This document shows positions 5,724-28,413 of a stretch of DNA of 64,000 nt, in pieces. Source of the stretch: Candidatus Poribacteria bacterium (GTDB lineage Bacteria > Poribacteria > WGA-4E > PCPOR2b); assembly GCA_965220385.1 (NCBI GenBank), contig OZ244825.1:777142-841141 (forward strand), read 5' to 3'. A program made the translations under genes and the position numbers. Position 1 is the first letter of the stretch. The number at the start of each line of letters is the position of its first letter. The notes below the pieces were generated by a model that saw only the letters and a program-made list of their open reading frames with translations, was not told where the DNA came from and ran no database searches.

Positions 5724-5951
5724 GAATGAAACGTGATGCGTGAAACGTGAAGATCGGAAGATGACCCGTCCTAAAGTCGTAAACACATTCCGCTTCGCAA
5801 ATTAAGTGGGTCGTCGTATCGTGAACAAAGCTATGACCCGGTAGGTGCGGTTTCTAACCGCACCGAATCCCGACGAGTCGGAACAGGACATGAGGAGCAA
5901 AAGTGTCTATAAGTGGGTCGTCGTATCGTAAACAAAGGTAAGGAAGAGACA

Positions 5952-7688
5952 GTGAAAAACACTCGATTTCTGCTCTCTGCTCTGGTTGATTTTCCGGATG
6001 ACTGCAATCGTTTGGTCTTTACACCCGGCCTGGTAGAAAACCTGATAGATCGCCTCCACTGGATGGGCGTCCGTCGGGTGTACTGGAACTATTACCAAAA
6101 AGGGATGTGGGACAATTTCGCCGACAACTCGGACGCGACTCGCCAGACCCTTGCGAATTTGGGAGAACCCCTAACTGTTGGCTGCCGTCTGGCGCATGAG
6201 CGAGGGATGGAATTCTACGCCACCATCAAGCCCTACGAAACCGGCGCAAGTCACGCCAATCCCAAAGATAGCCCTGAGATGATGGCTGTGCCCGGCTTGC
6301 CATGTATCGGTGGGGTCTGCAAGGTTGATCCGTGGGTCATGGCGCATCCGGAGATGCGGGTGCGAGGACGCAGCGCGGACGTACCCATGGGACTGGAGAA
6401 CGTCCCAATTGAGCGCATCCAACTCCGCCAAAAAGACATGGCGCCCGTCCGTATCGCACCAGAAAACATCGAAATCTGGACGAGTGACGATAATAACGGC
6501 TACCGAAAGCAGGACCTGACCTTTGCGGTGACCGAATCTGTTGAAACCTGTCCACGGGATGTCTTTGAGCTTGACGGCGACCCAGTCACGTCCCAAGGGG
6601 AATCGGTGCGAGCCCTCAACCTGAGTGGACTGAATCTGCTCGATCCGTTTATTGCGATCACCACCAATTTTGAGGACAGAGATGGCAGCTTCCGCAATAC
6701 CGCGATGGAGATGGTGCGGGCATTTGGTCCCAGCGGTCAGCCGATACCGATTGTCGTCGCCAGTCACAAGGCGGTTTGGAGACCCGTACGAGACTTCCGC
6801 ACAGGTGACCTTGAGTACGATGCAGGACTCGGCGATGCCATCGTTTGTCTTGATGTTAACAACCAACCTGTAGTCCCATCAGATACGTCCGCGAGTGACT
6901 CCAACGACGGGGTGATTGCGGTCGCGAGGGGACGAAACGAGTATTTCTCCGGTTCGCTCTGTGAAGCGTATCCGGAGGTACAATCGTACTGGTTGGGTTG
7001 GGTCGGCGAGTGCATTGCGGCGGGTGTTGACGGATTGGACGTTCGCATCTCCTGCCATAGTAGCTGGACAAATACGCCGGAGATCTACGGTTTCAATGAA
7101 CCTGTGACGGGGGAGTACCAGCGGCGATACGGTATCAATCCGGACGTGGAACCGTACGACCCAGCGTTGGTCGGGGCATTGCGCGGCGAATTCTTCGATC
7201 AGTTCCTGCGCGCAACAAAGCGGCGCCTGTCCGCAGCCGGTAAACGGATGCAGGTTCATGCGGAGATGGAATCGTTCCGGTCCGACGCCTGTCAGGGGCG
7301 CTGGCGCACCCGTCCCGGCAACATCACGTTTAACTGGCGAAGTTGGCTACATACCGGGCTAGCGGACGAAGCCACACTATTTGGACGTGGTTGGATGCCC
7401 GACCAAATGCTCAACGACGCACTCACGTTGGAGATGCTGCGGGAAGCTGCTGATACCGATGTGCCCGTGCATTTGAGCAAAGCGGTCGGACATAGCCGCG
7501 ACGGACGGGTACACGCTGATCTGTTGGAGTATATCTACCGTTTCGGTGGACTCACCGGATACACGCTCTATGAGACCGCGGCGATGTATGATGGGCAGCA
7601 GCTTGGGGCTGACGGTCAGCTACAGTTCCACCCGGGGCTGTGCGAGGGGATACGTGACCGTGTTAGAACTTTGGGGCTCATAGATTAA
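5952..7688 (+). CDS. Hypothetical protein (possibly a glycoside-hydrolase-like TIM barrel)
   Basis: Long ORF with coding-like composition. GTG start after an AAGGAAG Shine-Dalgarno is preferred over the ATG at 5913, which lies inside an intergenic repeat. No confident family assignment. Confidence 0.45.
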   Translation: MKNTRFLLSALVDFPDDCNRLVFTPGLVENLIDRLHWMGVRRVYWNYYQKGMWDNFADNSDATRQTLANLGEPLTVGCRLAHERGMEFYATIKPYETGASHANPKDSPEMMAVPGLPCIGGVCKVDPWVMAHPEMRVRGRSADVPMGLENVPIERIQLRQKDMAPVRIAPENIEIWTSDDNNGYRKQDLTFAVTESVETCPRDVFELDGDPVTSQGESVRALNLSGLNLLDPFIAITTNFEDRDGSFRNTAMEMVRAFGPSGQPIPIVVASHKAVWRPVRDFRTGDLEYDAGLGDAIVCLDVNNQPVVPSDTSASDSNDGVIAVARGRNEYFSGSLCEAYPEVQSYWLGWVGECIAAGVDGLDVRISCHSSWTNTPEIYGFNEPVTGEYQRRYGINPDVEPYDPALVGALRGEFFDQFLRATKRRLSAAGKRMQVHAEMESFRSDACQGRWRTRPGNITFNWRSWLHTGLADEATLFGRGWMPDQMLNDALTLEMLREAADTDVPVHLSKAVGHSRDGRVHADLLEYIYRFGGLTGYTLYETAAMYDGQQLGADGQLQFHPGLCEGIRDRVRTLGLID

Positions 7689-9281: not shown

Positions 9282-10160
9282 ATGCACATTATGCGGTCTT
9301 GGATGTTTGTACCGGGACATCAGCAAAGGATGATTGATAAAGCCTACGAACTAAAACTGGATGTAGCGATGTTCGATCTGGAGGACGGGGTGCCGCCCGG
9401 CGAAAAGAATACCGCCCGCGCCATGATGGCGGAAACCCTTGCCCGTCCGTCTGATAGAATGCTCCGTTTTGTGCGTATCCACCCCATCGGAAGCAAGGAG
9501 ATAGAGTCGGATCTATCTGCCGTAATTCGTCCCGGTCTGGACGGACTCACGTTGACGAAGGTGAATTGCCCCGATGGTGTGTCCCAAGTCAGCGCGATTC
9601 TGGATGAGCGAGAGGAGATAGCTGGACTCCAACCGGGGAGTGTTCGTTTGCTCGCCACGATTGAGAGTGCTCGCGGGTTGATTCAGGCACCCGCGATCGC
9701 AGCATCCAGCCCCAGACTTGTCGGGCTGATGTTCGGTGCCGAAGATTTCGCGATGGATCTGGGGCTGTTCAACGTCCGCCAAGGCGAAGCGGGAGATTTC
9801 CTGTACGCCCGCTCTGCACTCGTCGTCGCTGCCGCCAGCGAACGGTTACAAGCGATAGATCGGGTCTATCTCGACATTCGGAATCCCGACGGATTGGAAA
9901 AAGACACACGGTTTGCCCGTGACCTCGGGTTCACCGGCAAAGCCTTAATTCACCCCGCCCAGATTGAGGTCGTAGAAAAAGTTTTCCATCCAACCGATGC
10001 GGAGGTTGAGTATGCTCGACGTGTGGTGGAAGCCTTTGAGGCGGCGGAAGCGGAAGGCGCCGGTGCGGTTGCTGTCGACGGTCAGATGGTCGATCTGCCT
10101 GTGGTGGAGCGTGCCCGGCGTGCCCTGCAGCTTGTATCTGAAAATCCCTCGGATAAATGA
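9282..10160 (+). CDS. HpcH/HpaI aldolase / citrate lyase beta-subunit (CitE)-like (citryl/malyl-CoA lyase family)
   Basis: N-terminus MRSWMFVPGH...LDVAMFDLEDGV is diagnostic of the CitE/HpcH fold. Confidence 0.7.
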   Translation: MHIMRSWMFVPGHQQRMIDKAYELKLDVAMFDLEDGVPPGEKNTARAMMAETLARPSDRMLRFVRIHPIGSKEIESDLSAVIRPGLDGLTLTKVNCPDGVSQVSAILDEREEIAGLQPGSVRLLATIESARGLIQAPAIAASSPRLVGLMFGAEDFAMDLGLFNVRQGEAGDFLYARSALVVAAASERLQAIDRVYLDIRNPDGLEKDTRFARDLGFTGKALIHPAQIEVVEKVFHPTDAEVEYARRVVEAFEAAEAEGAGAVAVDGQMVDLPVVERARRALQLVSENPSDK

Positions 10161-10622: not shown

Positions 10623-12047
10623 ATGAAGATCCCAAGAGACGATAAGGTTCGTATGCTTAGATTTGCCGTACAGTTTTTGCCAGCGATGATACCTCTTTTT
10701 TTCTCCTTGTATTTCTGGAAAAAGGGGTGGACTGAGCCTGTCATAACCTTTATGTTGCTAAGTATTGGACTGATATTATTAGGGGGCTTTCTGATTCTAG
10801 TCAAGAGGATCATAGGCAACGATAGGTATTTTGTGGTTATAGGTGGCGCTCTGCTTATTCTGATAGGGTTGTATTGCTGGATAGGCAGCGGTAATATCTA
10901 TACGAGCATATTTGCTGTATTGGTCGGTATGGCTGTAATATTAGGGGAGATGTTAAAAGAAAAGCGGTGGCAGATTAGTATCACTGTTGCATTAGTGCTC
11001 GCTGTAGGCACTATCATCTATCTGGAAGAAACCAGTGAAGATAAAGGACATGCTGTCGACAGCGAGGGGGGCGTACAGCAGGAGGTCGTGGATAAAGCAT
11101 CGGCACCCAGCGATGTTCCAAGCGGTGAACCCGCAGTTTCGGCTACATCCGAACAGTCGATGACTGATATGATGAATCGGTTCTTAACTCCTGAGCAACG
11201 TGAAAATCCAACATTCCAGAAAGTAATGAAGGTTATGGAGTCCGATTCATTTCAGAAGCAGATGCAGGAACAAGATCTGCGGACACCGCAAGAATTTATT
11301 GACCTCATGGCAGCACATGGATTAACGGAGTTTGCAGAGATAGATTATGATAAAATCATGGCTGATGCCTATGCCCTTTCCGCACAACAATACGCTACCG
11401 CAAACCCCGGTAAAGACCCCGCGGACGACGATGAGGTAATGGCAAAACGAATCGGAGAAAGCCTGAAGACCGCCGATCCTGTATATGGCATAATGGAAAT
11501 TATGCAGGATCGCGAGATTGCTCTGTGGATGAGTGCCCGTTTCAAAGGGGACCAAGCTGCGATGAGTGAGTGGTTGATGCCGGTGATGAAAGGCGCCGTA
11601 TCGGCTGACTCTGCAAATTCGTCGTCCGCACCAATGGATTTTGAATTCCCCGACGGGTTTTTGTCCGATAGCCCTCCTGACGAACCCACAGAGCAGCTCC
11701 CTTTCGTAGAATCGGAACCCTTACTATCTGACCCCAGCCCGACATCAACGCGGAAAGAGCCTTCCATCCCCGACACCGAAAAGAGTTCCGCAGCAGCACC
11801 AACGGTTGAACCGGAAAAGATTCTCACTGAACTGTCTCCAGAACCGCCTGCACTCCCTACGGACGAGGAACTTGAAACGGCGTTAAGGGAACGATTTTCG
11901 CCTGAGCGTTTCGAGCGGGCAATGACAACGTTGGAGCGGTATGGACCGGAAGAGGGACTTCGCCGCCTTCGAGAGGCTGATCCGGAAATCGCCAAGCAGA
12001 TGGAACGGCGCCGCAGTAGAGAAGGTGGAGAGCAGGATTCCCGATGA
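10623..12047 (+). CDS. Polytopic membrane protein with a long acidic disordered C-terminal region ending in a conserved EEGLRRLREADPE motif
   Basis: N-terminal hydrophobic helices; the C-terminal RYGPEEGLRRLREADPEIAKQ matches the C-terminus of the 13418 protein (YGTEEGLRRLRVSDPDAARQ). Confidence 0.5.
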   Translation: MKIPRDDKVRMLRFAVQFLPAMIPLFFSLYFWKKGWTEPVITFMLLSIGLILLGGFLILVKRIIGNDRYFVVIGGALLILIGLYCWIGSGNIYTSIFAVLVGMAVILGEMLKEKRWQISITVALVLAVGTIIYLEETSEDKGHAVDSEGGVQQEVVDKASAPSDVPSGEPAVSATSEQSMTDMMNRFLTPEQRENPTFQKVMKVMESDSFQKQMQEQDLRTPQEFIDLMAAHGLTEFAEIDYDKIMADAYALSAQQYATANPGKDPADDDEVMAKRIGESLKTADPVYGIMEIMQDREIALWMSARFKGDQAAMSEWLMPVMKGAVSADSANSSSAPMDFEFPDGFLSDSPPDEPTEQLPFVESEPLLSDPSPTSTRKEPSIPDTEKSSAAAPTVEPEKILTELSPEPPALPTDEELETALRERFSPERFERAMTTLERYGPEEGLRRLREADPEIAKQMERRRSREGGEQDSR

Positions 12048-13322: not shown

Positions 13323-13417
13323 GCATCGTTAGAAAACTAGGCAGCCCAGCCTCTACTCGTGTCTCCGTAGGGGCTGGCAAAAAAACAGTTAAGCGATTCA
13401 GAAGGGACGGTATTTTG

Positions 13418-14422
13418 ATGCGAAAGGTTGTTCTATTGATCTCCGTGATAGTTATTCTAACAGCAGGCTGGATTTTCTACCTAAACCGGGAAAAAAAGAA
13501 CTTTATAGAGAATCTACCGCAATCCCCTGCGGTTGTTAACCAACCTATTAACAGTTCCTCTTCATCAGTAAATGAAAAGGAGGATTCTAGCTACTTTGTT
13601 GAAGTGGATGGGAAGAAATTCATTCCTGATGGCCGCCTGCATAAGACACTTCCACAGGAGCAGACCGCCTCCGCAGAAAAAACGTCTTCAGAAACGCCCA
13701 CTCCAGACGAGAAAGCAGATTTTGTGCGCGACCAATGGATTCAAATGTTTGGAGACATTCCACAGGTTCATGCCGCATCTGAGTACATGAGAAAAATATA
13801 CAAACGGGAACGTATGACAATTGATGAAGAGATTGCTGGCTTAGAAGCCTCACACTACCTATTTCCAGAGGGTGGGCATGGACTAATGTTGGCAATACGA
13901 AAGACTCAGAAAGCACAGGGGCTCGACGAGGACGACTTTGAGATCGTGTATGAGGAGGATTGGGAGAATGTAAGGCCTCCGCCGGGTTATAAGGAATATC
14001 ATTTTGGGAATGTACCTGAGCATCTCCGGTCCGATACCCCTGCACCTGATAGGATTTTTTCAGAAAGCATTGATGGAGATATAGACTTTCCTCCTGCTCG
14101 TTCTGAGGGGACTCCTGTAATGCCGGAACCTAAGACCTCAGTCACGTCTGACCATGTTCACCATGGAGATAGGCATGTACACGAACCGCCCACCCTCCAA
14201 CCGCCTGCACCGACAACTGCTAAAGGTGTTGAAGCGAACGGCTGGGAGGGGTTATCGTCTAAACAACGGGAGCAGGCGAAAGCGTTCTTTGACGAATATG
14301 GCACAGAGGAAGGGCTGCGGCGGTTGAGGGTGTCTGATCCTGACGCTGCGCGTCAATTTGGGCAGGAACGGCAGAAACCGCCTATCCCTTCCGAACCAAA
14401 TGATGAATCTTCTACGCAGTAG
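13418..14422 (+). CDS. Single-pass membrane-anchored protein with a disordered Pro/Glu-rich region and C-terminal EEGLRRLR...DP motif (paralogous at the C-terminus to the 10623 protein)
   Basis: N-terminal TM VVLLISVIVILTAGWIFYL; C-terminal FFDEYGTEEGLRRLRVSDPDAARQF. Confidence 0.5.
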   Translation: MRKVVLLISVIVILTAGWIFYLNREKKNFIENLPQSPAVVNQPINSSSSSVNEKEDSSYFVEVDGKKFIPDGRLHKTLPQEQTASAEKTSSETPTPDEKADFVRDQWIQMFGDIPQVHAASEYMRKIYKRERMTIDEEIAGLEASHYLFPEGGHGLMLAIRKTQKAQGLDEDDFEIVYEEDWENVRPPPGYKEYHFGNVPEHLRSDTPAPDRIFSESIDGDIDFPPARSEGTPVMPEPKTSVTSDHVHHGDRHVHEPPTLQPPAPTTAKGVEANGWEGLSSKQREQAKAFFDEYGTEEGLRRLRVSDPDAARQFGQERQKPPIPSEPNDESSTQ

Positions 14423-14881: not shown

Positions 14882-15853
14882 CTACGAAATTCCCAACTTT
14901 TCCATCTTATAGCGGAAAGTGGAGTAAGGGATGCCGAGATTTTTTGCGGCTTGAGTGCGATTCCAATGGGTTTCTTCAAGTGCCTGTGTGATCTGATCGT
15001 GCTCGCTCTCGACTGCCGATTCGTCAGGTTGTGACGGCAGTTCTTCCAATGCCTCTCCTTGAATATCAAGATGCTCGATTCCTATCAACGAGATCTTGGG
15101 TGGACAGAGAACAGCGGTGCGCTCAACGATATTTCGCAGTTCACGGATGTTGCCGGGGTATTGATAATCCAGAAGGGACGATTTAGCCCCGTCTGAAAAG
15201 CCGTCGAAGCTGCGCCCTCTTCTGGCGGTGTATGCCGCTAGGAAATGGTCCACCAACGGCAGGATATCTTCTGTTCTTTCCCTAAGCGGTGTGAGGTGGA
15301 TAGGAAAGAGGTTGAGCCGATGGAATAGATCACTGCGGAACTGTCCAGATTTGACAAGTTGTGGCGGATCTCTGTTGAATGCACTGATAATATGTGCTTG
15401 AAAGGAGATCTCCTCGGTGCCGCCAAGCCGTCTCAGCGTCCGGGTGTCGAGAACCCGCAGCAACTTAGCTTGTATGTCGAGTGGGAGGTCAGCAATTTCA
15501 TCCAGCAGAAGCGTGCCGCTATCTGCTATCTCAAAGTAGCCGGGTTTATCCGTCGTTGCATCGGTGTATGCCCCTTTGACGTGGCCAAAGAGTTCGCTTT
15601 CGACCAACGACTCTGGCAATGCCGAACAGTTGACAGCGACAAACGGCTGCTCTTCCGAAGACCCTTGAAAATGAATTGCCCGTGCGACCACCTCTTTTCC
15701 TGTGCCCGTTTCGCCGGTGAGGAGAATCGTATCAACCTTTGCTGCGACCGCCTGCCGGATGCGTTCTCGTACCTCTTGCGTAGCTGAACTATCTCCCACA
15801 AGGAATCGGTTTTGTATCCGCGGATTGTGATAGCTCGTAGATCGATTATCCAT
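14882..15853 (-). CDS. Sigma-54-dependent transcriptional activator (bacterial enhancer-binding protein) with no N-terminal regulatory domain (PspF-like architecture: AAA+ domain plus C-terminal HTH)
   Basis: GETGTGKE Walker A, ESELFGHVKGAYTDA (GAFTGA-type sigma-54 contact loop), RELRN (sensor II) and C-terminal HTH NLGIPYSTFRYKMEKLGI. The AAA+ domain starts about 40 residues from the N-terminus, so no receiver/GAF/PAS domain. Start chosen at MDNRST after an AGAGGG Shine-Dalgarno. Confidence 0.8.
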   Translation of the reverse strand: MDNRSTSYHNPRIQNRFLVGDSSATQEVRERIRQAVAAKVDTILLTGETGTGKEVVARAIHFQGSSEEQPFVAVNCSALPESLVESELFGHVKGAYTDATTDKPGYFEIADSGTLLLDEIADLPLDIQAKLLRVLDTRTLRRLGGTEEISFQAHIISAFNRDPPQLVKSGQFRSDLFHRLNLFPIHLTPLRERTEDILPLVDHFLAAYTARRGRSFDGFSDGAKSSLLDYQYPGNIRELRNIVERTAVLCPPKISLIGIEHLDIQGEALEELPSQPDESAVESEHDQITQALEETHWNRTQAAKNLGIPYSTFRYKMEKLGIS

Positions 15854-15961
15854 TTGTCCCTCTCTTCTCGATAAACGCGGCTTGACTGTTTTATCCTCAA
15901 AAGAGTTGATGTATCGCATGGTCAGCTACTTTCGAGGTTCTCCACTGTTCCCATTTCCTTT

Positions 15962-16656: not shown

Positions 16657-17421
16657 ATGAAAACCATATTTGACGTGCTTCGTCACCCGCTGGTTATCGG
16701 TGCACTCGTATTGAGCATCCTCATTGTGGTAGGTGTGTATTTCGGAAGCCATTGGTACTATGGTGATGTTGAACCAGTTGAAATGCCGGAGGTTTCTGCA
16801 CCTGCTCCGCCCCTGCCTAAAAATCTTTCCGTCTCTGAAGTTGATTTGAGTGGTCTGGATGGGGAATCATCCCCACCGCAAACGGAATCAGAGCCTACAG
16901 TTTCGTCTGTGGAAGGCGAGTCGGTCGATGATTTCTTGGCAGAGCTATCGGATGAGGAGATGGCTCTGTTGACAGCTGAGGTGGTGGAACCTCAACGGGT
17001 TTCTCCCTTTGGCTTTGGTCCATATCCCCAAGTACCTTCAGATTTTCCCGAAGATCCCATTTGGGAAGAAGATATGGAAGCAAATATCTCACAATTTGGC
17101 AGCGAAGCGATGAAGGAAGCAGAATTGATGGATCGGGTTTTAATTCAACTCTGGAATCAGGGACATCGTGCTACTTCTGCGTCAAAGCACAGTAACGGGC
17201 TCGTCTATCCATCATTTCCCAACACGGTCTTTGTCCGATGGGACTACATAGAGGAAGAAGATGGGACAATTACTAAATATGCAAGGAGAATATCTAGTGG
17301 TGCGGAGGTATCAGATAGTGACCTTAATGATTTAGGGGAAGGGATTATTCCGCCCGGCATAAAGGTGCTTGACTATGATTCAGATGGAATAAATCCCTAC
17401 ACTTTTTTGAATCTTAACTAA
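16657..17421 (+). CDS. Single-pass membrane-anchored protein, family A (N-terminal TM, Pro/Ser/Glu-rich linker, conserved about 140 aa C-terminal domain ending PYTFLNLN)
   Basis: 77% paralog of the 18587 protein; GAGGAGAG Shine-Dalgarno; no recognisable domain. Confidence 0.6.
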   Translation: MKTIFDVLRHPLVIGALVLSILIVVGVYFGSHWYYGDVEPVEMPEVSAPAPPLPKNLSVSEVDLSGLDGESSPPQTESEPTVSSVEGESVDDFLAELSDEEMALLTAEVVEPQRVSPFGFGPYPQVPSDFPEDPIWEEDMEANISQFGSEAMKEAELMDRVLIQLWNQGHRATSASKHSNGLVYPSFPNTVFVRWDYIEEEDGTITKYARRISSGAEVSDSDLNDLGEGIIPPGIKVLDYDSDGINPYTFLNLN

Positions 17422-18451: not shown

Positions 18452-18586
18452 TTCTTATGAGTCTGTGGTTGAACCCTTCAACCATGATAAAGGATTTTCG
18501 ATAGGTAGCGATTTGAATTATAAGTACACAAGCACTGTACCGTGTAATTTCTAACACTGTACACTTAAATGAGAGGAGAGCGTACG

Positions 18587-19357
18587 ATGAAAACGGTACT
18601 TGACCTGCTTCGTCACCCGTTGGTTCTCGGTGCACTCGTATTGAGCATCCTCATTGTGGTTGGTGTGTATTTCGGAAGCCATTGGTACTATGGTGATGTT
18701 GAACCAGTTGAGATACCGGAGATCTCCGCTCCTACTCCCGCCCTGCCTAAAAAATCTGCCTCCTCTGAAGTTGATTTGAGTGGCTTACAAGGGGAATCAT
18801 TGACACTGGAAACGGAATCAACGCCTACAGCACCGTCTATGGCAGTCGAGTCGGTCGATGATTTCTTAGCAGAGCTATCGGCTGAAGAGAAAGTACTGTT
18901 GACGGCGGAAGTGGTGGAAGATACGCAGCCGGTTTCCCCATTCGGTTTTGGTCCATATCCCCAAGTACCTTTAGACTTTCCCAGAGATCCCATCTGGGAA
19001 GCAGTCGAGATGTACGAAAAAATCAATCAACATGGACGTGGTATGATGAAGGCAATAGAATTGATGGATCGGGTTGTAATAAAACTCTGGAATCAGGGGC
19101 ATAGAGCAAGCTCTGCGTCAATGAGTAAAGGACGCGTCTATCCGGGATTTCCCAACACGGTTTATGTCCGATGGAGTTACATTGAAGAACCAGATGGGAC
19201 AATTACTCGATATGCAGGACGAAAAACGAGTGGGCCGGACATCCCCGAAAGTGTCTTTGATGCTTTAAGTGAGGGGATTGTCCCACCCGGCATAACCGTA
19301 CTTGATCATGATGCTGATGGAATAGATCCTTACACTTTTTTGAATCTTAATCAATAA
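18587..19357 (+). CDS. Single-pass membrane-anchored protein, family A (paralog of the 16657 protein)
   Basis: MKTVLDLLRHPLVLGALVLSILIVVGVYFGSHWYYGDVEPVE... is near-identical at the N-terminus and conserved in the C-terminal domain. Confidence 0.6.
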   Translation: MKTVLDLLRHPLVLGALVLSILIVVGVYFGSHWYYGDVEPVEIPEISAPTPALPKKSASSEVDLSGLQGESLTLETESTPTAPSMAVESVDDFLAELSAEEKVLLTAEVVEDTQPVSPFGFGPYPQVPLDFPRDPIWEAVEMYEKINQHGRGMMKAIELMDRVVIKLWNQGHRASSASMSKGRVYPGFPNTVYVRWSYIEEPDGTITRYAGRKTSGPDIPESVFDALSEGIVPPGITVLDHDADGIDPYTFLNLNQ

Positions 19358-20230: not shown

Positions 20231-21430
20231 ATGAGACTCCTCGAACATCAAAGCAAAAAATTACTCTCCAACTTCGGATTAGCTTTCACGGACTCGACGC
20301 TGGTTAACTCAATGGGTGAGGTGCGAGCAACCGTTGAGCGTGTCGGGCTGCCCGTTGTCCTGAAGGCGCAGACCCCTTTCGGTGGACGTGGGAACATCGG
20401 GGCGGTGAAGTTCGCGGAGACCGTGGATCAAGCCGTCATCGCGGCAAAGGCTTTGTTCGGGATGGACGTGCGCGGCACAATCGTTGACGTGGTTTCGATT
20501 GAACCGAGGCTAAACTACGAACGCGAGTTTTACGTTGGTATTACATGGGATACGGTCGCAAAGCTGCCGGTTGTACTATTGAGCCTCGCCGGTGGTGTGG
20601 ATGTTGAATCCTCCCAGAGCGATCAGGGCGCACGTCAGTCATTTGACCCGTGGACGGGACTCGCACCTTATGAGGCGAGAGGATTGGCCGCCAAAGTTGG
20701 ATTAACGGGAAAAACCTTCTTGGGAGTCGGGGATACTCTTACCAAGTTGTCGGGAGCGTTTCTCGCCTGCGATGCCGTCACGATGGAGATCAATCCGTTA
20801 GTCGTTATCGAGGACGAGACACTTATCGGGCTTGATGCGCGCCTAGAGATTGAGGACGAGGCGGTGTATCGGCAGCGGAAACGGTTGGAGCCGTTGGGCG
20901 AACTGACGGTGACCGCAGCGGGTCGTCCGCCCACGCCTCTGGAACTGGAGGCACAACGTATCGATGCAATAGACCATCGGGGCGTTGCCGGACGCGTGGT
21001 CGAATTTGACGGCGATCTCGCCCTCCTGATCGGTGGCGGCGGCGCAAGCCTGACCGTTTTCGACGCAATCAAAGCGCACGGCGGAAGTCCGGCGAACTAC
21101 TGCGAAGTAGGCGGAAACCCGACGGAGGAGAAGGTTGCTGCCATAACATCGCTCCTGCTATCAAAGCCGGGAGTGAAGGGGCTGGCAGTTATCATGAATG
21201 TGGTCAACAACACCCGTGCGGATGTCATCGCTCGCGGTGTCCTCATGGGGGTCGAGACCGCAGGAAGAAAACCCGCGGAGACAATCAGCCTCTTCCGTGT
21301 CCCCGGCAACTGGGAGGCGGAAGCGCGGGAGATCATGGAGGCAGCCGGCGTCGAAGTCTACGGACGCGAGGTGTCGTTAGATACGGCTGCCCGGTTGGCT
21401 GTTGAAAGGAATCGCGCCCATGCTGCTTGA
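20231..21430 (+). CDS. ADP-forming succinyl-CoA synthetase beta-subunit-like ATP-grasp protein (SucC/MtkA/CcsA family)
   Basis: N-terminus MRLLEHQSKKLLSNFGL...VVLKAQ...GGRG pattern matches SucC; translationally coupled to the alpha-like subunit. Confidence 0.7.
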   Translation: MRLLEHQSKKLLSNFGLAFTDSTLVNSMGEVRATVERVGLPVVLKAQTPFGGRGNIGAVKFAETVDQAVIAAKALFGMDVRGTIVDVVSIEPRLNYEREFYVGITWDTVAKLPVVLLSLAGGVDVESSQSDQGARQSFDPWTGLAPYEARGLAAKVGLTGKTFLGVGDTLTKLSGAFLACDAVTMEINPLVVIEDETLIGLDARLEIEDEAVYRQRKRLEPLGELTVTAAGRPPTPLELEAQRIDAIDHRGVAGRVVEFDGDLALLIGGGGASLTVFDAIKAHGGSPANYCEVGGNPTEEKVAAITSLLLSKPGVKGLAVIMNVVNNTRADVIARGVLMGVETAGRKPAETISLFRVPGNWEAEAREIMEAAGVEVYGREVSLDTAARLAVERNRAHAA

Positions 21431-22307
21431 CCCGAAGGGGGGTGTTCTCGTGCAGGGGATCACCGGCAGGGAAGCGAGCCGTATGGTCGAAGACTCGCTC
21501 GCCTACGGGAGTAACATCGTCGCCGGTGTAACACCCGGTAAGGGAGGACAGGGCGTCCACGGAGTGCCCGTCTACGACACAGTCGCAGCAGCGGTTGAGA
21601 AGCATCGCCCAACGATCAGCATTATCTCTGTTCCGCCTCCCGCCGTGCTTGATGCCGCCCTCGAATCCTTCTCCGCCGGTATGCAGCTCTGTCTGATTAT
21701 GACGGAGCGTGTCCCACAACTGGACACCAGTAAATTACTGATCGCCGCCCGCTGCACCGGTTGCACCGTCATCGGTCCCAATTCGTTGGGGCTGATCCGT
21801 CCGGGAATTGCGAAACTCGGCACCATCGGCGGTCGCGTGGATAATGTGCGACGTTCCTTTATGCCGGGCAAGGTCGCTGTGCTATCTCGCAGCGGTGGTA
21901 TGACCACCGAGATCGCCAGCTATCTGACCAGTCGTGGCGTGGGGCAGAGTATCGCTATCGGCGTGGGCGGGGATGCACTCATCGGCTCCAATTTCACGGA
22001 ACTGATTGAACGCCTTGAGGCGGATCCCGACACGGATGCTGTAGTTATCTATGGGGAGCCGGGCGGGGCTGCGGAGGAGCAGCTCGCAGCGCGAATGAAG
22101 CAAAAATCGTCCCGACTCCGAATAGTTGCCTTTCTGTCCGGCAGCTTCGTTGATGACCTCGAAGGTGTACGGTTCGGTCATGCCGGGGTGATCGTCGAAG
22201 GGGGACGCGGATCAGTTCGTGGGAAGGTGAAAGCCCTCCGTGAAGCCGGAATATTTGTAGCAGAGACGTTTGAGGACATTTTACACGGGCTTGAACCTGA
22301 TGCGTAG
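21420..22307 (+). CDS. Succinyl-CoA synthetase alpha-subunit-like CoA-binding protein (SucD family)
   Basis: VLVQGITGREAS...GVTPGKGG...IGPNSLGLIRPG motifs; ATG overlaps the upstream stop (ATGCTGCTTGA). Confidence 0.7.
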   Translation: MLLDPKGGVLVQGITGREASRMVEDSLAYGSNIVAGVTPGKGGQGVHGVPVYDTVAAAVEKHRPTISIISVPPPAVLDAALESFSAGMQLCLIMTERVPQLDTSKLLIAARCTGCTVIGPNSLGLIRPGIAKLGTIGGRVDNVRRSFMPGKVAVLSRSGGMTTEIASYLTSRGVGQSIAIGVGGDALIGSNFTELIERLEADPDTDAVVIYGEPGGAAEEQLAARMKQKSSRLRIVAFLSGSFVDDLEGVRFGHAGVIVEGGRGSVRGKVKALREAGIFVAETFEDILHGLEPDA

Positions 22308-22399: not shown

Positions 22400-24682
22400 A
22401 TGAACTCTTGGTACAGTATTAAAGGACTGGTTCGGTATTTATCCGCCATCCTTCTATTTGCCCTGTTCATATATCTACCTGCTGCACATTCACAGCAATT
22501 TATAGCGAAGGACGGGGAAATTCGCGGGACGGTCTATGGTCAAGAGGCGAGCGAGCCGTTAGTGGACGCTACCGTCCGATTGGTCGAAAGCGACCGAGTG
22601 ACGCTGACCGATGATAAGGGTGGATTTCGATTCGAGGATCTGTCTCCCGGCGATTATACATTGGCTGTGATTGCCATCGGTTATCGTCTCCTTGAGGAGA
22701 ACAACGTCGCTATGGTGAAGTCGGGCGAGGTGACTGAGGTCGAGATTTATCTTGCCCCGGTCGATACGATCTTAGATGAGGTCGAGGTCAGATCGCGGTC
22801 CATACCGACGACCGTCGGTAGGCAGACCGTAGGCGTCATGGAGATTAAACGGATCCCCGGCAGCGCAGGGGACGCACTCCGAGCACTCCAGGCGTTGCCG
22901 GGGATCGGTGTCGCAAGTGATTTCGACGGTCAACTCTATATCCGCGGCGGTGCCCCCGACGACAACCGGTTTTACCTTGATCGTGCCCCTCTCTTTTATC
23001 CCTACCACTTTGGTGGCTTGGTCTCAACTATCAATTCAGAGGTGCTCAACCGGATTGATGTCTACGCCGGCGGATTCGGAGCGGAGTTTGGAGCGGACGC
23101 CCAAGCCGTAATAGACATCTATTCGCGGCGTGGCAGGGAAGATCGGATAGGCGGCAAATTTAACGTGAACCTCCTCTATTCCGAGGGGTTGGTTGAAGGA
23201 CCGATTGGAGGGCGCGGGTCCTGGTATCTCGCAGGGCGGCGAAGCTATGTCGACCTCTTCCTGATGGAGACTACCCAGATCACGGCGTTTCCGCGATTCT
23301 GGGACTATCAGGCGAAGGTCAGCTACGATCTCTCTGACAATCACCAATTCGACGTTAAGGCGTTCGCCGCGGGCGATGTCATGGGGTTTAAGTTGGGTTT
23401 AGAAGATGTTGATTATGATCCAACGCTCGCAGGAAGGTTCGACCTTGAAGGGCGATTTGGTGTGCAAGCCGCGGATCTCAGATCAACACTGACCGACCGC
23501 CTCACTTCGCATCTCTCCGTCTCGCGTGCGACTTTCTTACAAGCCTTTAGCTTCGGTCAAGGCCTTTTCCTGCGACTGGAGCCGATCCAGTACGAAGTCC
23601 GCGAGGACCTCGCCTACCGCTTGAATTCGCAACATCAGCTTGAATCGGGGCTGCTTGTTTCTACGGCGCAGTGGAACGGATCCGCCAACTTTCCTCGCCG
23701 CGCCGATGAAGGGGACCCGCAGGCGACCGAATCTCAATTCTTCACCTTTGCGGAAAAGATCTCTGTAGATTTTGCCGAACGGTTCAACGTCATTGAGGGG
23801 TATCTCCAGAATCGGTATGACCCGTTTGCGTTCTTATCGCTTACGTTAGGGCTGCGGCTGGACTATTTTAACCTTACCGATCGCGTCTCCGTGGGACCGC
23901 GGGGCAGCCTTCAATTCAATATACCGGGCGGTTCAGAGCTCCGCTTTGCCTACGGTAGATACGAGATTAGTCCTTATCCATGGCAAATTATCCCGGGATA
24001 CGGAAATCCGGAGGTGAAGGAGAATACGGCGACCCATTATATCCTGGAATTGGAACGGGAAATTAGCGCCCAAACACGGCTCAAGGTTGCCGGTTATCAG
24101 AAAGATTTTAGAGACCTAATTACCCGTGATCAGGTCGCGGGATACCTGAATCAAGGACAGGGCTACGCGCGTGGGATTGAAATTTCTCTCAAACATCGTG
24201 CCGGCGACCGATTCTTCGCTTGGGCGAACTACGGCTACTCTGTTTCTAAACGCGAAGACCGGCCCGGCGATCCAGAGCGACTCTATTCGTTTGATCAGCC
24301 CCACGTCGCAACGCTCACAGCAAGCTATCTGATCACACCGACATGGGAGATCGGTGCGAAGTGGCAGTATCGCTCCGGGCTGCCCTACACGCCGGTAGTC
24401 GGTCGGGAGATTCGACGCCATCCAGATACAGGTCGCCCCCGCTACAGTCCTCTCTTCGGCGAAACGAACACGGCGCGGGTACCGCCGTTCCACCGCTTGG
24501 ACATCCGTATCAGCAAGTCGTTCATCTATCAGCGTTGGCGATGGAGCATCTTCCTTGAGGTACTTAATGCATATAATCGCAAGAATGTGTTAGATGTTGA
24601 TTACAACAGAAGCTACACAGAGGAGCGATACCTCTACCAATTGCCCATAGTCCCGTATCCGGGGATAACGGTTGAGTTCTAA
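22400..24682 (+). CDS. TonB-dependent-receptor-like outer-membrane protein (CarboxypepD_reg domain, plug, beta-barrel; C-terminal Phe)
   Basis: Signal peptide; GTVYG...TVRLVESDRVTLTDDKGGFRFEDLSPGDYTLAV (CarbopepD_reg); RIPGSAGDALRALQALPGI plug; ends ...GITVEF. Confidence 0.7.
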   Translation: MNSWYSIKGLVRYLSAILLFALFIYLPAAHSQQFIAKDGEIRGTVYGQEASEPLVDATVRLVESDRVTLTDDKGGFRFEDLSPGDYTLAVIAIGYRLLEENNVAMVKSGEVTEVEIYLAPVDTILDEVEVRSRSIPTTVGRQTVGVMEIKRIPGSAGDALRALQALPGIGVASDFDGQLYIRGGAPDDNRFYLDRAPLFYPYHFGGLVSTINSEVLNRIDVYAGGFGAEFGADAQAVIDIYSRRGREDRIGGKFNVNLLYSEGLVEGPIGGRGSWYLAGRRSYVDLFLMETTQITAFPRFWDYQAKVSYDLSDNHQFDVKAFAAGDVMGFKLGLEDVDYDPTLAGRFDLEGRFGVQAADLRSTLTDRLTSHLSVSRATFLQAFSFGQGLFLRLEPIQYEVREDLAYRLNSQHQLESGLLVSTAQWNGSANFPRRADEGDPQATESQFFTFAEKISVDFAERFNVIEGYLQNRYDPFAFLSLTLGLRLDYFNLTDRVSVGPRGSLQFNIPGGSELRFAYGRYEISPYPWQIIPGYGNPEVKENTATHYILELEREISAQTRLKVAGYQKDFRDLITRDQVAGYLNQGQGYARGIEISLKHRAGDRFFAWANYGYSVSKREDRPGDPERLYSFDQPHVATLTASYLITPTWEIGAKWQYRSGLPYTPVVGREIRRHPDTGRPRYSPLFGETNTARVPPFHRLDIRISKSFIYQRWRWSIFLEVLNAYNRKNVLDVDYNRSYTEERYLYQLPIVPYPGITVEF

Positions 24683-24705: not shown

Positions 24706-26484
24706 CTATTTGAGAATAACCATCTTTCGAGTGCTGGAATAATCCCCTGCATGTAGCTGGTAAAAATAGATACCGCTCCCCACCGGCTCGCCTAACTGGT
24801 TGCGTCCGTCCCAATACGCCGCACGCGTCCGATCCATGTAATACCCCGCCACCTGATGCCCTAAATCCAATTGCCGGACCAACATGCCCTCGGTATCATA
24901 GATGGTAAGCGTTACCTCCGCAGCGTGAGCCAGTTGATACGGGATCCATGTCTCTGGATTGAAGGGGTTGGGGTAGTTCGCAAGTAAGGTAGTTTGGTCG
25001 GGACGGATCGCTTCCAAAATGTGCTTTAGGTTAAGGATACCCTCTTGAAAGGGAAGTGAGCCATCATCCACTGCGTGCGCCATATCTATCCAATTCTGAA
25101 TCGTCTCGGAATTGATGCCTGATAGGGGTTGCATTCCTACACCGGGGGCTAAGCCGTTTGAAGATTCACCTAAGCGTTGGGCAACTTGGATAAGGTCGAA
25201 AATATTGACCACCCCATCACTGTTGATATCAGCTTGCGGGTTGGATTGACCAAAGTTTTGAGCCACTACAATCAGATCGAAGATATTTATCTGTCCATCC
25301 CCGTTGACATCCCGCGAGTTGCCGACGGTAATTGAATTGACGACGATTCTGAAGGGAATTCGGCCTCCGCTCGGATCGCCCAACCTAACTCCGCGTAGCC
25401 TTAAATTTCCCTCCCCTACTGTCTTTGCTTCAAAGGTTATGGATAGCAAGGTTCCAGTTCCGCTGATGCCGCCTGCGCTGATACGTGCTAACGCGGAGCC
25501 GGTGATTTCGCCCGCGGTATTGTTGATGCTGCCCGCCTGAAAAAAGGTTTGTCCGTTGTTCTGGGAAAGAAAATCCCCTTCACTGACAGAGACGGCTTGG
25601 AGAACCGCAGGATCGAACGTAATATCGAGTTCCCAACCTGCTAAATTGGTAATGTCTTCGACCATGAGTCCGAGTGTAAATGTATCACCTACGTTTACTG
25701 AATCAGTTGTGGGAAAGAAAATTCTTGCCAAATTATCCTCTACAATCTTCGCATCCCCGATTAAGACGCCATGGTTCCCATGTCGGGATAGATCGTTGGC
25801 TGTCCCGTCATCGAAGTTCCAGTAACCGGCGAGCCCTGACTCATTTCCCTGAAGCACGGTATTCATTGTGGCTTGGATCTCCGCTTCCGTGCGAACAAAA
25901 TTCCAGAGTCGTACTTCGTCAATCAGACCATCGAAAAAATTCCGAGCACTTGGCCGACGACCGCCAATTTTGAAGTAGTTATGCTCGTCATAAACGTCCC
26001 CAATTTCCCCTGTGCCGACGCTTGAAAACACCAGCACCCCGTTGGCAAAGAGTTGAAAGGTCTGCGTCTCCTCTGAATAGGTGAATGCGAGATGTGCCCA
26101 TGTGCCCTCGGGAACGACATATTCGGTGTTAACCCAATCCCATCCCGGATTCTCGTTGCTAACGGCGAACCGAATACTGCCATCCTCAAATCGCCCGAGT
26201 TCATATTCACCCTCCTTATTGACGATAATTCCTCCGTTCGTTCGGGTATCACCCTGGCCCGAACCTGGACCTAACGGATGGATCCAAGTTTCAATGGTTA
26301 GTGTAAGGGGCATGACCAAGGATTGTGCGTGTTCAACGCGGACTTCGTCGCCTTCACCATCCAGACTCAATACAGAACCGATCCCTGCGGCAAGGCTCAA
26401 GTTGAAACTTCCACAAAAGAGGAAGAGAAGAATTGACACCCACAGGCTATGTTTCAGGAAATTACGAACCGCGTATCTTTTCAT
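24706..26484 (-). CDS. Secreted multidomain protein: LamG/ConA-like, cohesin-like and two dockerin-type repeats, with a T9SS C-terminal sorting domain
   Basis: DEVRLWNFVRTEAEI...YWNFDDG (LamG); DVNGDGQINIFDLIVVAQNFG and DINSDGVVNIFDLIQVAQRLG (dockerin repeats); C-terminal YPNPFNPETWIPY...TRKMVILK. Confidence 0.7.
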   Translation of the reverse strand: MKRYAVRNFLKHSLWVSILLFLFCGSFNLSLAAGIGSVLSLDGEGDEVRVEHAQSLVMPLTLTIETWIHPLGPGSGQGDTRTNGGIIVNKEGEYELGRFEDGSIRFAVSNENPGWDWVNTEYVVPEGTWAHLAFTYSEETQTFQLFANGVLVFSSVGTGEIGDVYDEHNYFKIGGRRPSARNFFDGLIDEVRLWNFVRTEAEIQATMNTVLQGNESGLAGYWNFDDGTANDLSRHGNHGVLIGDAKIVEDNLARIFFPTTDSVNVGDTFTLGLMVEDITNLAGWELDITFDPAVLQAVSVSEGDFLSQNNGQTFFQAGSINNTAGEITGSALARISAGGISGTGTLLSITFEAKTVGEGNLRLRGVRLGDPSGGRIPFRIVVNSITVGNSRDVNGDGQINIFDLIVVAQNFGQSNPQADINSDGVVNIFDLIQVAQRLGESSNGLAPGVGMQPLSGINSETIQNWIDMAHAVDDGSLPFQEGILNLKHILEAIRPDQTTLLANYPNPFNPETWIPYQLAHAAEVTLTIYDTEGMLVRQLDLGHQVAGYYMDRTRAAYWDGRNQLGEPVGSGIYFYQLHAGDYSSTRKMVILK

Positions 26485-26520
26485 GAATCTTGACTCCTTA
26501 AAATTTAGGCTAAAGGTGAA

Positions 26521-28356
26521 TTATTTCAGAATTACCATCTTTCGTGTGAAGGAATAATCGTCTGTGCGCAGCTGATAGAAATAGACCCCACTCCCCACCG
26601 GCTCGCCTAAATGGTTGCGGCCGTCCCAATACGCCGCTCGTGCCCTATCTGTGTAATACCCCGCCTGCTGATACCCTAAATCTAATTCACGCACCAATAC
26701 CCCTTGAGTGTCATAAATGGTAAGCGTCACATCGGCAGCATGAGCGAGTTGATACGGAATCCATGTCTCTGGATTAAACGGGTTTGGATAGTTGTGCAGC
26801 AATGCCGTCTCCGCCGGTATTTCATACGCGACCAGCGCTGGCAACTGAATAAGTCCGTGCCTTACATCTTCAGCGGTTACTGTATATTGGAGTGGCTCTA
26901 CACCAACTAACGGATTTGAAGATTGAGCAGAGATTTCAAGGATATCTCCGATCATAGCCGCTCGCCCCCTCTCTAAATCAACGTCCGTGAGTTGATAGCC
27001 TATCCCATCCGAGCCCCAATTATCTGTGTGAGGGCGGTGTGCGCCTCTTGCTACAGTGGTGACCGTTCTGCCGGTTGCGCGGTTCTTCACAGTGAGCCGG
27101 AAGCTTGTTGTGTTCAACCCCCTTCCGCTACCAGCAACCGAACCTCTCAACGCCAAAATAGGTGTCATATCGTCCACTTGGATACCCTTCAACGATACCG
27201 GCGGTGCGCCACCCACTTCTGGCAAGTTGCTCCATGCATCGCCGGAGGTTTTAACCTCCTCGCTCTGTAGAGCGTTCAGGATAAAGGCTTGCCCCCCGGA
27301 GATCTCTATATCTCCAGGATCTCCCGCCCGTCCAACTAACTTGAACTCCCCGCCATCGGTGAGGATTATTACAGGGACATTGCCCCCAATCCCATCGAGC
27401 GTAAATAGATCGCTCACACGCGCTATTCCCGGCTCTTTCAACGGCAGACCCACAACGTTGAGACCCCGGTTTAAGGTTATGGTACTCATCCCGTCTGTTC
27501 CTAACGCACTCCCTCGCAGACGAAGCGACAGCACCGGTTCTTTCAAATTGACCATAACCCCTTTCTCGTCAGTCAATCTCGCGTTCGCGGGACCATCTCT
27601 GTCGACAGCACCGAAGTAGCTGCGCCATTCCTGTGTTTGGGAGTCATAGGTGATGAGGTAAGTGACTTTTGACGCGCCACCGAGTGCGTCGTACAGATCG
27701 CTGATAGATTCGATAGTCCGTGCCACTCCACCAACGGCATTCACCTTCAGCGGCACATGGATCAAACTGATACCTTCCGGTATCGACAGTTTGAATTCCG
27801 CATCACTTGCCGAGGCAGCGGTTGAAGTGATAGTCGCCCCTGTAATCGAAGCGATTTTAATTTCCTGTGCCGTTCGACTCCCAATCACAACACGCTCAAA
27901 TCCGATCATCGTTTCTGTTTCGGCTAATACCTTGAACCTTGCTACGGCGAGGGTCCCATCACCATCTCCCGCCCCGGTCATAGCGAACGCAGCGTATCTC
28001 ACTGAACCGTCCCCAACTACAGCCGGTATCGTATATACATCGGACACGGGGTAGTCTGGATCACTTACAGACTCCAGTTCGGTTGGGGGGAACATAAGTG
28101 TGCCCTCATCGCCAGCGAGATAGTCCGCATTTTCAATACTTATAAATTCCAGTTCAGTTGGACTAAAGGTGAGTGTGAAATCATAGCCAGCGACGTTAGA
28201 TCCGCCAGTGATATTAATGGAAAATTCAACTTCATCACCCACCGCGGGCATATTTGAGCTGGGCTCGGCTGAGATGTCCACTTGTGCGAATCCTGTTGAT
28301 GCAACCGAGAGCCATATCAAAGGTAATAAACTAAAACGAAAGAGTTGCTTGCTCAT
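26521..28356 (-). CDS. Secreted protein with a cohesin-like N-terminal domain, an about 400 aa module shared with the 41783 protein, and a T9SS C-terminal sorting domain
   Basis: Signal peptide MSKQLFRFSLLPLIWLSVASTGFAQ; the C-terminal 80 aa is near-identical to that of the 24706 protein. Confidence 0.7.
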   Translation of the reverse strand: MSKQLFRFSLLPLIWLSVASTGFAQVDISAEPSSNMPAVGDEVEFSINITGGSNVAGYDFTLTFSPTELEFISIENADYLAGDEGTLMFPPTELESVSDPDYPVSDVYTIPAVVGDGSVRYAAFAMTGAGDGDGTLAVARFKVLAETETMIGFERVVIGSRTAQEIKIASITGATITSTAASASDAEFKLSIPEGISLIHVPLKVNAVGGVARTIESISDLYDALGGASKVTYLITYDSQTQEWRSYFGAVDRDGPANARLTDEKGVMVNLKEPVLSLRLRGSALGTDGMSTITLNRGLNVVGLPLKEPGIARVSDLFTLDGIGGNVPVIILTDGGEFKLVGRAGDPGDIEISGGQAFILNALQSEEVKTSGDAWSNLPEVGGAPPVSLKGIQVDDMTPILALRGSVAGSGRGLNTTSFRLTVKNRATGRTVTTVARGAHRPHTDNWGSDGIGYQLTDVDLERGRAAMIGDILEISAQSSNPLVGVEPLQYTVTAEDVRHGLIQLPALVAYEIPAETALLHNYPNPFNPETWIPYQLAHAADVTLTIYDTQGVLVRELDLGYQQAGYYTDRARAAYWDGRNHLGEPVGSGVYFYQLRTDDYSFTRKMVILK

Positions 28357-28413
28357 GATTTTGCTTCCTTTACAGTTTAGAGTGAGATAGTCATGCAATT
28401 CATCAAAAGTGAT

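Follow-up and report, generated by a model that had tools for sequence, protein, structure and literature searches.

The DNA analysed here, called the window, is a stretch of 64,000 nucleotides from a Candidatus Poribacteria bacterium (contig OZ244825.1, positions 777,142 to 841,141); all coordinates given without a locus name are positions in this window. It includes two adjacent genes, designated ORF A (open reading frame A; 24706..26484, (-) strand) and ORF B (26521..28356, (-) strand), whose products carry cohesin modules, one of them also a dockerin, and end in a C-terminal domain (CTD) of the kind recognised by type IX secretion systems (T9SS). The two proteins belong to an apparently undescribed, phylum-wide kit whose probable role is to join binding proteins in a cell-surface coat, rather than to degrade cellulose. 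ORF A encodes 592 aa: signal peptide, LamG domain, cohesin, dockerin, helical hairpin, CTD (ORF list, Pfam, NCBIfam and AlphaFold2 (AF2) model). ORF B encodes 611 aa: signal peptide, cohesin, a module designated X, CTD (ORF list, Pfam and NCBIfam). The open frame of ORF B reaches a TTG at 28398; the likely start is the ATG at 28356. An earlier note, made from the sequence of this stretch, had located both genes correctly and described them as convergent; they are in fact in tandem, ORF B preceding ORF A on the same strand. The two genes are probably co-transcribed, because only 36 bp separate them on the same strand and no terminator-like site was found in between by a promoter/terminator scan whose overall yield was not above chance.

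ORF A starts with a Sec-type signal peptide (26389..26484, (-) strand, aa 1-32, MKRYAVRNFLKHSLWVSILLFLFCGSFNLSLA/AG, cleavage ...NLSLA/AG), recognised by inspection and modelled as an N-terminal helix (residues 5-23) with a low predicted local distance difference test score (pLDDT). The AF2 model of the whole protein (mean pLDDT 79) has sandwich folds for LamG and cohesin, followed by two helices belonging to the dockerin, a hairpin of two more helices and, at the C-terminus, a beta-sandwich. The LamG or concanavalin-like lectin domain (25873..26361, (-) strand, aa 42-204) matches Laminin_G_3 (Pfam, 1.4e-28, 100.4 bits), and its model matches the LamG domain of PAPP-A, pentraxins and 4dqa (Foldseek). 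The cohesin module (25321..25728, (-) strand, aa 253-388) matches Pfam Cohesin (PF00963) over aa 259-358 with 48.4 bits (cut-off 24.1), and also the ScaB cohesin 3l8q (phmmer against PDB). It is modelled, with a pLDDT of about 74-93 in this region, as a sandwich whose fold agrees with the nine-stranded jelly-roll of solved cohesins. Its best structural match is 2xdh, a non-cellulosomal cohesin of Archaeoglobus fulgidus (Foldseek, template modelling (TM) score 0.79 on the target), followed by clostridial cohesins; 6kgc_A and 4dh2_A are among the further matches.

The dockerin of ORF A (25171..25311, (-) strand, aa 392-438) matches Dockerin_1 (Pfam PF00404, 31.9 bits, cut-off 22.9) and 2y3n_B, a dockerin of B. 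cellulosolvens (phmmer, 1.1e-7); the region also matches 2jnk/2ozn. Its two repeats, DVNGDGQINIFD and DINSDGVVNIFD, are calcium-binding F-hands, and a helix comes after each of them (401-409 and 428-435 in the AF2 model), which is the duplicated loop-plus-helix arrangement of type I dockerins. Positions D1, N3, D5 and D12 of both repeats are 95-100% conserved in 100 ORF A homologs, and the calcium ligands appear to be under selection. The two repeats are nearly symmetric (consensus V-N-I-[LF]-D-L-I-x-V-A-Q-x-L-G, 100 dockerins). Internal symmetry of this type is known from dockerins with a dual binding mode. Carrying both a cohesin and a dockerin, ORF A would be adaptor-like. Between the dockerin and the CTD lies a conserved two-helix segment, the hairpin (25006..25110, (-) strand, aa 459-493), in which six columns of homolog alignment A1 are invariant: W465, G475, S476, F479, L486 and L490 (consensus TIQxWIDMAHAADDGSxAFQxGIANLxxLL). 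It is modelled as helices 459-471 and 477-493 (AF2, pLDDT 81-88), is found in about 111 of the 120 top ORF A homologs and has no match in Pfam. The domain content that the earlier note had assigned to ORF A (signal peptide, LamG, cohesin, two dockerin repeats) is thus upheld by Pfam, fold comparison and inspection, and the strings that it had quoted, DVNGDGQINIFDLI, DINSDGVVNIFDLI, YPNPFNPETWIPYQLAHAA and TRKMVILK, are present in the sequence.

ORF B also starts with a Sec-type signal peptide (cleavage ...STGFA/QV, by inspection). The single cohesin proposed for it by the same note was recovered by Pfam (27856..28245, (-) strand, aa 38-167; Cohesin 34.5 bits, cut-off 24.1) and matches the type I and type II cohesins 1g1k, 1ohz and 3l8q (Foldseek, TM score 0.5-0.63, from a weaker model and with low-to-moderate confidence). 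The remainder of the protein up to the CTD is the X module (26812..27807, (-) strand, aa 184-515), a region of about 330 aa predicted to be beta-rich, with two sub-domains (alignment of ORF B with ORF C, described below; AF2 pLDDT 65-88). No Pfam family is matched by the X module of ORF B or of ORF C, and no NCBIfam family by that of ORF B; Foldseek gave no confident match for the fold of the module, only a loose likeness to arrays of Ig-like domains. Scanned in full with HMMER, 1.84 billion representative proteins yielded 558 relatives of the module at E<=1e-3, of which 248 reach E<=1e-30. Among the 150 best of the 558, which range from about 400 to 4437 aa, the module is nearly always placed immediately ahead of a CTD. 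The X module looks like an alternative pre-CTD stalk, used in place of the cassette made of cohesin, dockerin and hairpin.

A third CTD protein of the window, ORF C (41744..45250, (+) strand, about 1155-1168 aa), was missed by the earlier note, as was the X module. It includes an M12/reprolysin-like metallopeptidase domain (HELGH), about eight leucine-rich repeats (LRRs), Big_1, an X module (about 43997-44959, (+) strand) and a CTD (44972-45247, (+) strand) that shares 64-66% identity with the CTDs of ORF A and ORF B (motif search, Pfam, BLASTP and hidden Markov models (HMMs) of the modules). ORF B and ORF C are 58% identical over a 481-residue alignment spanning the X module and the CTD (BLASTP). 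The N-termini of ORF A, ORF B and ORF C all have, by inspection, a basic n-region, a hydrophobic core and an AxA-like cleavage site. A BNR/sialidase-like gene (45319-46953) lies 3' of ORF C.

The CTDs of ORF A (24709..24984, (-) strand, aa 501-592) and ORF B (26524..26799, (-) strand, aa 520-611) were assigned to the T9SS type in the earlier note, and both exceed the cut-off of 23 bits of TIGR04183: 29.1 bits over residues 504-590 for ORF A, where FlgD_ig scores 34.1 bits, and 38.6 bits for ORF B, which also matches Por_Secre_tail (28.0 bits, cut-off 27). CHU_C, the type B model of Pfam, stays below its cut-off; the ORF A domain is T9SS type A-like and is modelled as a beta-sandwich (AF2, pLDDT 84-94). 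The two CTDs are not identical, as had been stated, but share 84% identity at the protein level and 81% at the DNA level. The motif NYPNPFNPETWIPY is invariant across the aligned homologs, and no other part of either family is as conserved as the CTD, which is exactly C-terminal in 206 of 223 family proteins, with the motif 89 aa from the end. Its conservation suggests that the CTD is under selection. The CTD-coding motif occurs three times in the window, against 0.01 expected by chance. At least 592 CTD-coding stretches came from a scan with the CTD alignment, restricted to one genome per species. Of the 36 best loci, nearly all are titled Candidatus Poribacteria metagenome-assembled genomes (MAGs), many of which are closed chromosomes of 4-6.8 Mb. 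The next-closest CTDs (40-52% identity) belong mostly to lineages of the Fibrobacterota-Chlorobiota-Bacteroidota (FCB) group; the lineages found are Bacteroidota, Ignavibacteria, Calditrichia, KSB1, Marinimicrobia, Zixibacteria, Latescibacteria, Cloacimonadota and Gemmatimonadota. Homologs of ORF A and ORF B (P0052, P0189) are named Candidatus Poribacteria by NCBI, and one of them is annotated as "T9SS type A sorting domain-containing protein".

Orthologs of ORF B are found in many Poribacteria MAGs, as more than 100 cluster representatives (585-611 aa, 60-92% identity over the full length). All share its architecture (cohesin, X module, CTD) and none has a dockerin. ORF B would be a conserved single-cohesin anchor, near-universal in Poribacteria. 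It occupies one syntenic slot: hydantoinase ... DAO, NADK-like, aldo-keto reductase, ORF B, ..., TonB receptor, succinyl-CoA-ligase-like; this holds for the loci L001, L164 and L165. Homologs of ORF A that are 60-93% identical have the same architecture as ORF A, and about 110 of the 120 best homologs end in one or several cohesins, a dockerin, the hairpin and the CTD. The spacing of these parts varies little: from the dockerin to the CTD it is near-constant (107-124 aa), and 0-7 aa link the cohesin to the dockerin. The N-termini are variable (LamG, LRR, Big_1, beta-propellers, NPCBM), and ORF A is one of hundreds of proteins in which a tail of cohesin, dockerin and CTD follows variable binding modules. 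The ORF B-ORF A pair recurs in L165, whose ORF B ortholog is 70% identical. In L164, ORF B is followed by unrelated genes, and a homolog with LamG, cohesin, dockerin and CTD (L002) is found about 1.9 Mb away on the same chromosome. In L004, the slot holds ORF A, a 1383-aa protein that begins with LRRs and ends in cohesin, dockerin and CTD, and a two-cohesin protein. Given these varied contents, the slot is a variable island for such genes, of which ORF B is the commonest occupant.

The repertoire of the phylum was drawn from Poribacteria loci totalling about 0.9 Mb, searched with module HMMs and checked with Pfam. CTD genes are clustered in these loci (2-5 per 20 kb). Anchors combining CTD and cohesins have 1 to 5 cohesins; some lack a dockerin, e.g. 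a protein made of cohesin, Spond_N and CTD. Scaffoldin-like homologs from other Poribacteria, with 3-5 tandem cohesins, are P0149 (three cohesins, X module, CTD), P0340 (five cohesins, 13 Big_1, PKD, MG2, X module, CTD), P0052 (three cohesins, dockerin, CTD) and P0216 (LamG, four cohesins, X module). Tails made of dockerin and CTD are found on double WD40 propellers, on proteins with LRRs, MG4 and Big_1, and on proteins with VWA and LDL-receptor-B domains. Six proteins end in a dockerin and lack a CTD (L006:4499-6607, L012:3765-5009, L015:11402-12397, L024:2334-4235, L024:14774-17029 and L029:10340-11506; module HMMs, Pfam): four have GHL15, two of these together with LRRs, and one has a WD40 propeller. 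The proteins of this type also comprise a small dockerin protein. The dockerin-terminated proteins without CTD are candidate passengers for the cohesin anchors. Outside Poribacteria the cassettes are nearly absent: 163 sampled CTD proteins include one with cohesin, dockerin and CTD and one with dockerin and CTD. The anchor, adaptor and passenger logic of cellulosomes is thus present in Poribacteria at the level of the family.

What these proteins carry bears on whether the system is a true cellulosome for polysaccharide breakdown, in which ORF B would be the anchoring scaffoldin and glycoside hydrolases bearing dockerins would be the subunits. Scaffoldin-like proteins with several cohesins do exist in Poribacteria, GHL15, a hypothetical glycosyl hydrolase domain, is found on dockerin-terminated proteins, and M36 and M12-like peptidases bear the tails described here. 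To our knowledge, no enzyme activity has been demonstrated for GHL15, and its matches are weak to moderate (24-46 bits, cut-off 27). The cargo is dominated by LamG, LRR, WD40, VWA and Ig-like binders, with few peptidases (M36, M12-like) and one hypothetical glycoside hydrolase-like domain. No canonical Pfam domain of a glycoside hydrolase (GH), polysaccharide lyase (PL), carbohydrate esterase (CE) or carbohydrate-binding module (CBM) was found in ORF A, in ORF B or in the approximately 240 homologs listed. At the locus itself, ORF A and ORF B have one cohesin each, and no multi-cohesin scaffoldin of the strict cellulosome type is present; nor are there enzyme-borne dockerins with a scaffoldin CBM, the passenger of ORF A being a LamG domain. 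A similar inference has been published for Cloacimonadota (PMC8542988); for Poribacteria, a polysaccharide-degrading cellulosome is very improbable. The label "cellulosome-like", given in the earlier note to a surface scaffold, stands for the anchor, adaptor and passenger architecture: the term is true of the architecture, not of the function, since the cargo consists mostly of binders and no canonical GH or CBM was found.

The favoured mechanism, to which a probability of about 60% is given, combines Sec export, CTD-dependent anchoring at the surface and calcium-dependent pairing of cohesins with dockerins in trans, which would build a mesh of binding proteins on the surface. The identities of the domains, the conservation of the calcium ligands and of the CTD motif, the architectures of the families and the synteny are established; the export route, the surface anchoring, the choice of partners by cohesins and dockerins and the biological role are what we infer. 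ORF A and ORF B, as their signal peptides suggest, would be exported by Sec. The CTD, a T9SS type A-like beta-sandwich, would direct them across the outer membrane and anchor them there. In ORF B the X module would form a beta-rich stalk of about 330 aa that bears a single cohesin at its tip, and the protein would act as a conserved anchoring "mini-scaffoldin". ORF A would have a lectin-like LamG head followed by its cohesin and two-repeat dockerin; it could be docked through the dockerin and could dock others through the cohesin. Trans pairing would join such proteins to one another and to anchors like ORF B, and would also capture secreted proteins that end in a dockerin and lack a CTD. The outcome would be a non-covalent protein mesh on the surface of the symbiont, made mostly of eukaryote-like binding modules with a few hydrolases, and probably involved in interaction with the matrix, the glycans or the cells of the sponge.

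Several points weigh against this mechanism. The binding of the cohesins of ORF A and ORF B to any dockerin is a predicted pairing. The AF2 model of ORF B has a pLDDT of 61, a low confidence, and only its cohesin part was recognised by Foldseek. The adjacency of ORF A and ORF B was considered as a phylum-wide conserved operon and rejected: it holds in L001 and L165 and fails in L164, L004, L002 and L003. The cohesin-dockerin linker of 0-7 aa may result in a cis interaction or a rigid stalk. The cassette would then be a cis-paired or calcium-stabilised rigid spacer that lifts the N-terminal binder off the membrane, without any intermolecular scaffold. The short linker, the position of the cassette (always directly before the CTD, at a near-constant distance from the dockerin) and the fact that other CTD proteins have the X module where these have the cassette, as though either could serve as the stalk, are what a spacer would give. 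A spacer does not account for dockerin-only proteins that have neither cohesin nor CTD, nor for cohesin-only anchors and proteins with 3-5 cohesins but one or no dockerin. Moreover, with a linker of 0-7 residues the dockerin could probably not reach back to the binding face of its own cohesin. As the numbers of cohesins and dockerins are unequal, which fits trans pairing only, and as dockerin-only passengers exist, the modules would pair in trans; a purely structural stalk is unlikely.

The other points of this kind concern the secretion machinery. No T9SS component was found in the 64-kb window, where about 40 of 43 large ORFs were scanned against Pfam or NCBIfam. HMMs of PorV, SprA, PorL and GldM, built from published sequences (FASTA supplement of PMC7323717), were searched against all ORFs of 166 records (2.13 Mb, of which about 0.94 Mb is from Poribacteria). 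None of the four matched in the approximately 0.94 Mb of Poribacteria loci, a small non-random sample centred on cargo genes. PorV-like genes were found in five non-Poribacteria loci (L046, L050, L064, L069 and L124: two Cytophagia, one Neomarinimicrobiota, one MAG and one metagenome contig), so that a PorV-like gene lies within 10 kb of a CTD gene in about 5 of about 110 non-Poribacteria loci versus 0 of about 55 Poribacteria loci. The HMMs of SprA, PorL and GldM matched nowhere in the 2.13 Mb and thus have no positive control. Eight unannotated neighbours of cargo genes gave nothing relevant with NCBIfam. Poribacteria are placed outside the FCB group in the NCBI taxonomy, and the T9SS is described in recent papers as confined to Bacteroidota or to the FCB group. 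No publication linking Poribacteria to T9SS machinery was found among the searchable papers. Because the sample is small and biased toward cargo genes, the misses of PorV, SprA, PorL and GldM in about 0.94 Mb are not evidence that Poribacteria are devoid of a T9SS.

These results are compatible with a CTD that is not a T9SS signal: an Ig-like domain of the FlgD_ig type serving another export or anchoring system, or another role, in bacteria without T9SS. Both proteins indeed score higher with PF13860 (FlgD_ig) than with PF18962, whose cut-off ORF A does not reach. This explanation is given a low probability. It has to contend with the TIGR04183 scores of both proteins, with the location of the domain at the extreme C-terminus of proteins bearing signal peptides, with its 40-52% identity to the CTDs of Bacteroidota and other FCB lineages and with the small, partly uncontrolled machinery search. 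Anchoring through a T9SS-like CTD is retained as part of the favoured mechanism.

The many eukaryote-like repeat proteins of sponge symbionts are viewed as mediators of host recognition or of escape from phagocytosis. A broader and tentative proposal, possible rather than probable, is that Poribacteria, although outside the FCB group, use a T9SS-type signal, read by a divergent T9SS or by other machinery, together with a self-linking cohesin-dockerin code to build a non-covalent surface lattice that displays LRR, WD40, LamG and VWA modules to the sponge. If true, it would amount to a bacterial surface coat of a new kind and would explain how the eukaryote-like proteins of sponge symbionts get to the host interface. 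The common tail found on many repeat proteins of Poribacteria, made of cohesin and/or dockerin and a T9SS-type CTD, provides a testable model of how they are exported, anchored and assembled into a mesh at the surface. The system would also widen cohesin-dockerin biology to include a diderm candidate phylum and a use that is large in scale and non-enzymatic, raises the question whether a T9SS, or a reader of the same signal, occurs outside the FCB group, and is a source of many natural cohesin-dockerin pairs, possibly orthogonal, for protein engineering.

The neighbours of the pair are as follows. Aldo-keto reductase and NAD-kinase-like genes precede ORF B and ORF A on the same strand. On the other side, a TonB-dependent receptor-like gene (22400..24682, (+) strand) is convergent with ORF A, 23 bp away, in the tail-to-tail position that had been reported for it. 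It encodes CarboxypepD_reg (48.8 bits) and Plug (33.9 bits, cut-off 23.9) domains (Pfam) and gives partial matches to TonB-receptor barrels (NCBIfam); the ortholog in L164 has TonB_dep_Rec_b-barrel. A plug followed by a barrel is the layout of TonB-dependent receptors. The receptor is the same neighbour in L001, L004, L164 and L165. A functional tie between the receptor and the ORF A-ORF B pair was considered; no evidence for it was found, and the receptor is a syntenic flank. Next to the receptor gene, 20231-22307 ((+) strand) encodes an ATP-grasp and citrate-binding subunit and a CoA-ligase subunit, which resemble ATP-citrate lyase, citryl-CoA synthetase or succinyl-CoA ligase and keep their place beside the receptor in L164 and L165; a CitE-like lyase (9282-10160, (+) strand) lies 10 kb upstream of this CoA-ligase-like pair. 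The region of the window from about 12 to 20 kb has a lower G+C content (44-50%) than both flanks (51-57%). Sizeable ORFs in or around it (10623-12047, 13415-14422, 16657-17421 and 18569-19357), and another further upstream (5913-7688), match no Pfam or NCBIfam family; a sigma-54 activator is encoded at 14882-15919 ((-) strand). Elsewhere in the window, an IS701-family transposase was found at 52791-53786 ((-) strand; NF049921, 397 bits), and the C-terminal part of the product of 3182-4108 ((+) strand) weakly matches a group I intron endonuclease (30.8 bits with TIGR01453, whose cut-off of 56 is not reached).

Several known systems share part of these features. Clostridial cellulosomes (CipA, OlpB and SdbA of C. 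thermocellum) have, like Poribacteria, cohesins and two-repeat calcium-binding dockerins that match the same Pfam models, as well as cohesin anchors, adaptors with cohesin and dockerin, dockerin-ended passengers and multi-cohesin scaffoldins. They differ in their anchor, which consists of S-layer homology (SLH) domains or a sortase-dependent attachment, whereas it is a T9SS type A-like CTD in Poribacteria, a Gram-negative (diderm) candidate phylum. They also differ in their cargo (GH and CBM in cellulosomes; mostly LamG, LRR, WD40 and VWA in Poribacteria) and in module arrangement: cohesin and dockerin are adjacent in Poribacteria, with a 0-7 aa linker, and the proteins of the window have one cohesin each. 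Non-cellulosomal cohesins and dockerins were reportedly found in all three domains of life by Peer et al. in 2009, who are also said to have noted that a cohesin and a dockerin may share one polypeptide and that assemblies of non-cellulases occur. Two such cases match ORF A: its cohesin has its best structural match in AF2375/2376 of Archaeoglobus fulgidus (PDB 2xdh), and its dockerin region matches 2jnk/2ozn of the GH84 toxin complexes of Clostridium perfringens (PDB 2ozn, 2jnk, 2w1n). These are isolated genes or small sets without T9SS-type CTD, in contrast to the phylum-wide family of hundreds of proteins in Poribacteria.

T9SS type A cargo of Bacteroidota (gingipains of P. gingivalis, enzymes of F. 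johnsoniae and C. hutchinsonii, multi-modular cellulases of Ca. Paraporphyromonas, PMC5831590) shares with the Poribacteria proteins a signal peptide, modular passengers and a beta-sandwich CTD of about 90 aa matching TIGR04183. The Poribacteria CTD is a longer "NYPNPFNPETWIPY" variant, preceded by a cohesin-dockerin or X-module cassette. The secretion machinery is demonstrated in Bacteroidota; in the Poribacteria DNA sampled it was not found, its absence not being established. The closest precedent is Ca. Stygibacter (Cloacimonadota), for which Williams et al. (2021) predicted a CTD-anchored cohesin scaffoldin and secreted proteins bearing dockerins (PMC8542988). In both cases the system was predicted by bioinformatics outside Firmicutes, with scaffoldins attached to the surface through a conserved CTD, for which PMC8542988 cites a T9SS review. 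Ca. Stygibacter has one scaffoldin of 3,755 aa with tandem cohesins and CBM2/CBM3, and its dockerins are found on GH18, GH57 and peptidases (PMC8542988). In contrast, the Poribacteria system is spread over many proteins, its cargo is dominated by eukaryote-like repeats, most of its dockerin proteins have their own CTD and often their own cohesin, and its hosts are not classified in the FCB group. No paper on cohesin-dockerin proteins in Poribacteria was found, the search covering literature available without subscription; a paper on Latescibacteria contains no mention of cohesins. Cohesins and dockerins outside Firmicutes, one predicted scaffoldin bearing a CTD (PMC8542988) and NCBI T9SS labels on Poribacteria homologs are already known; the use of cohesin, dockerin, hairpin and CTD as a general tail, its phylum-wide scale, its cargo of binding repeats, the X module and its occurrence in a phylum outside the FCB group are new.

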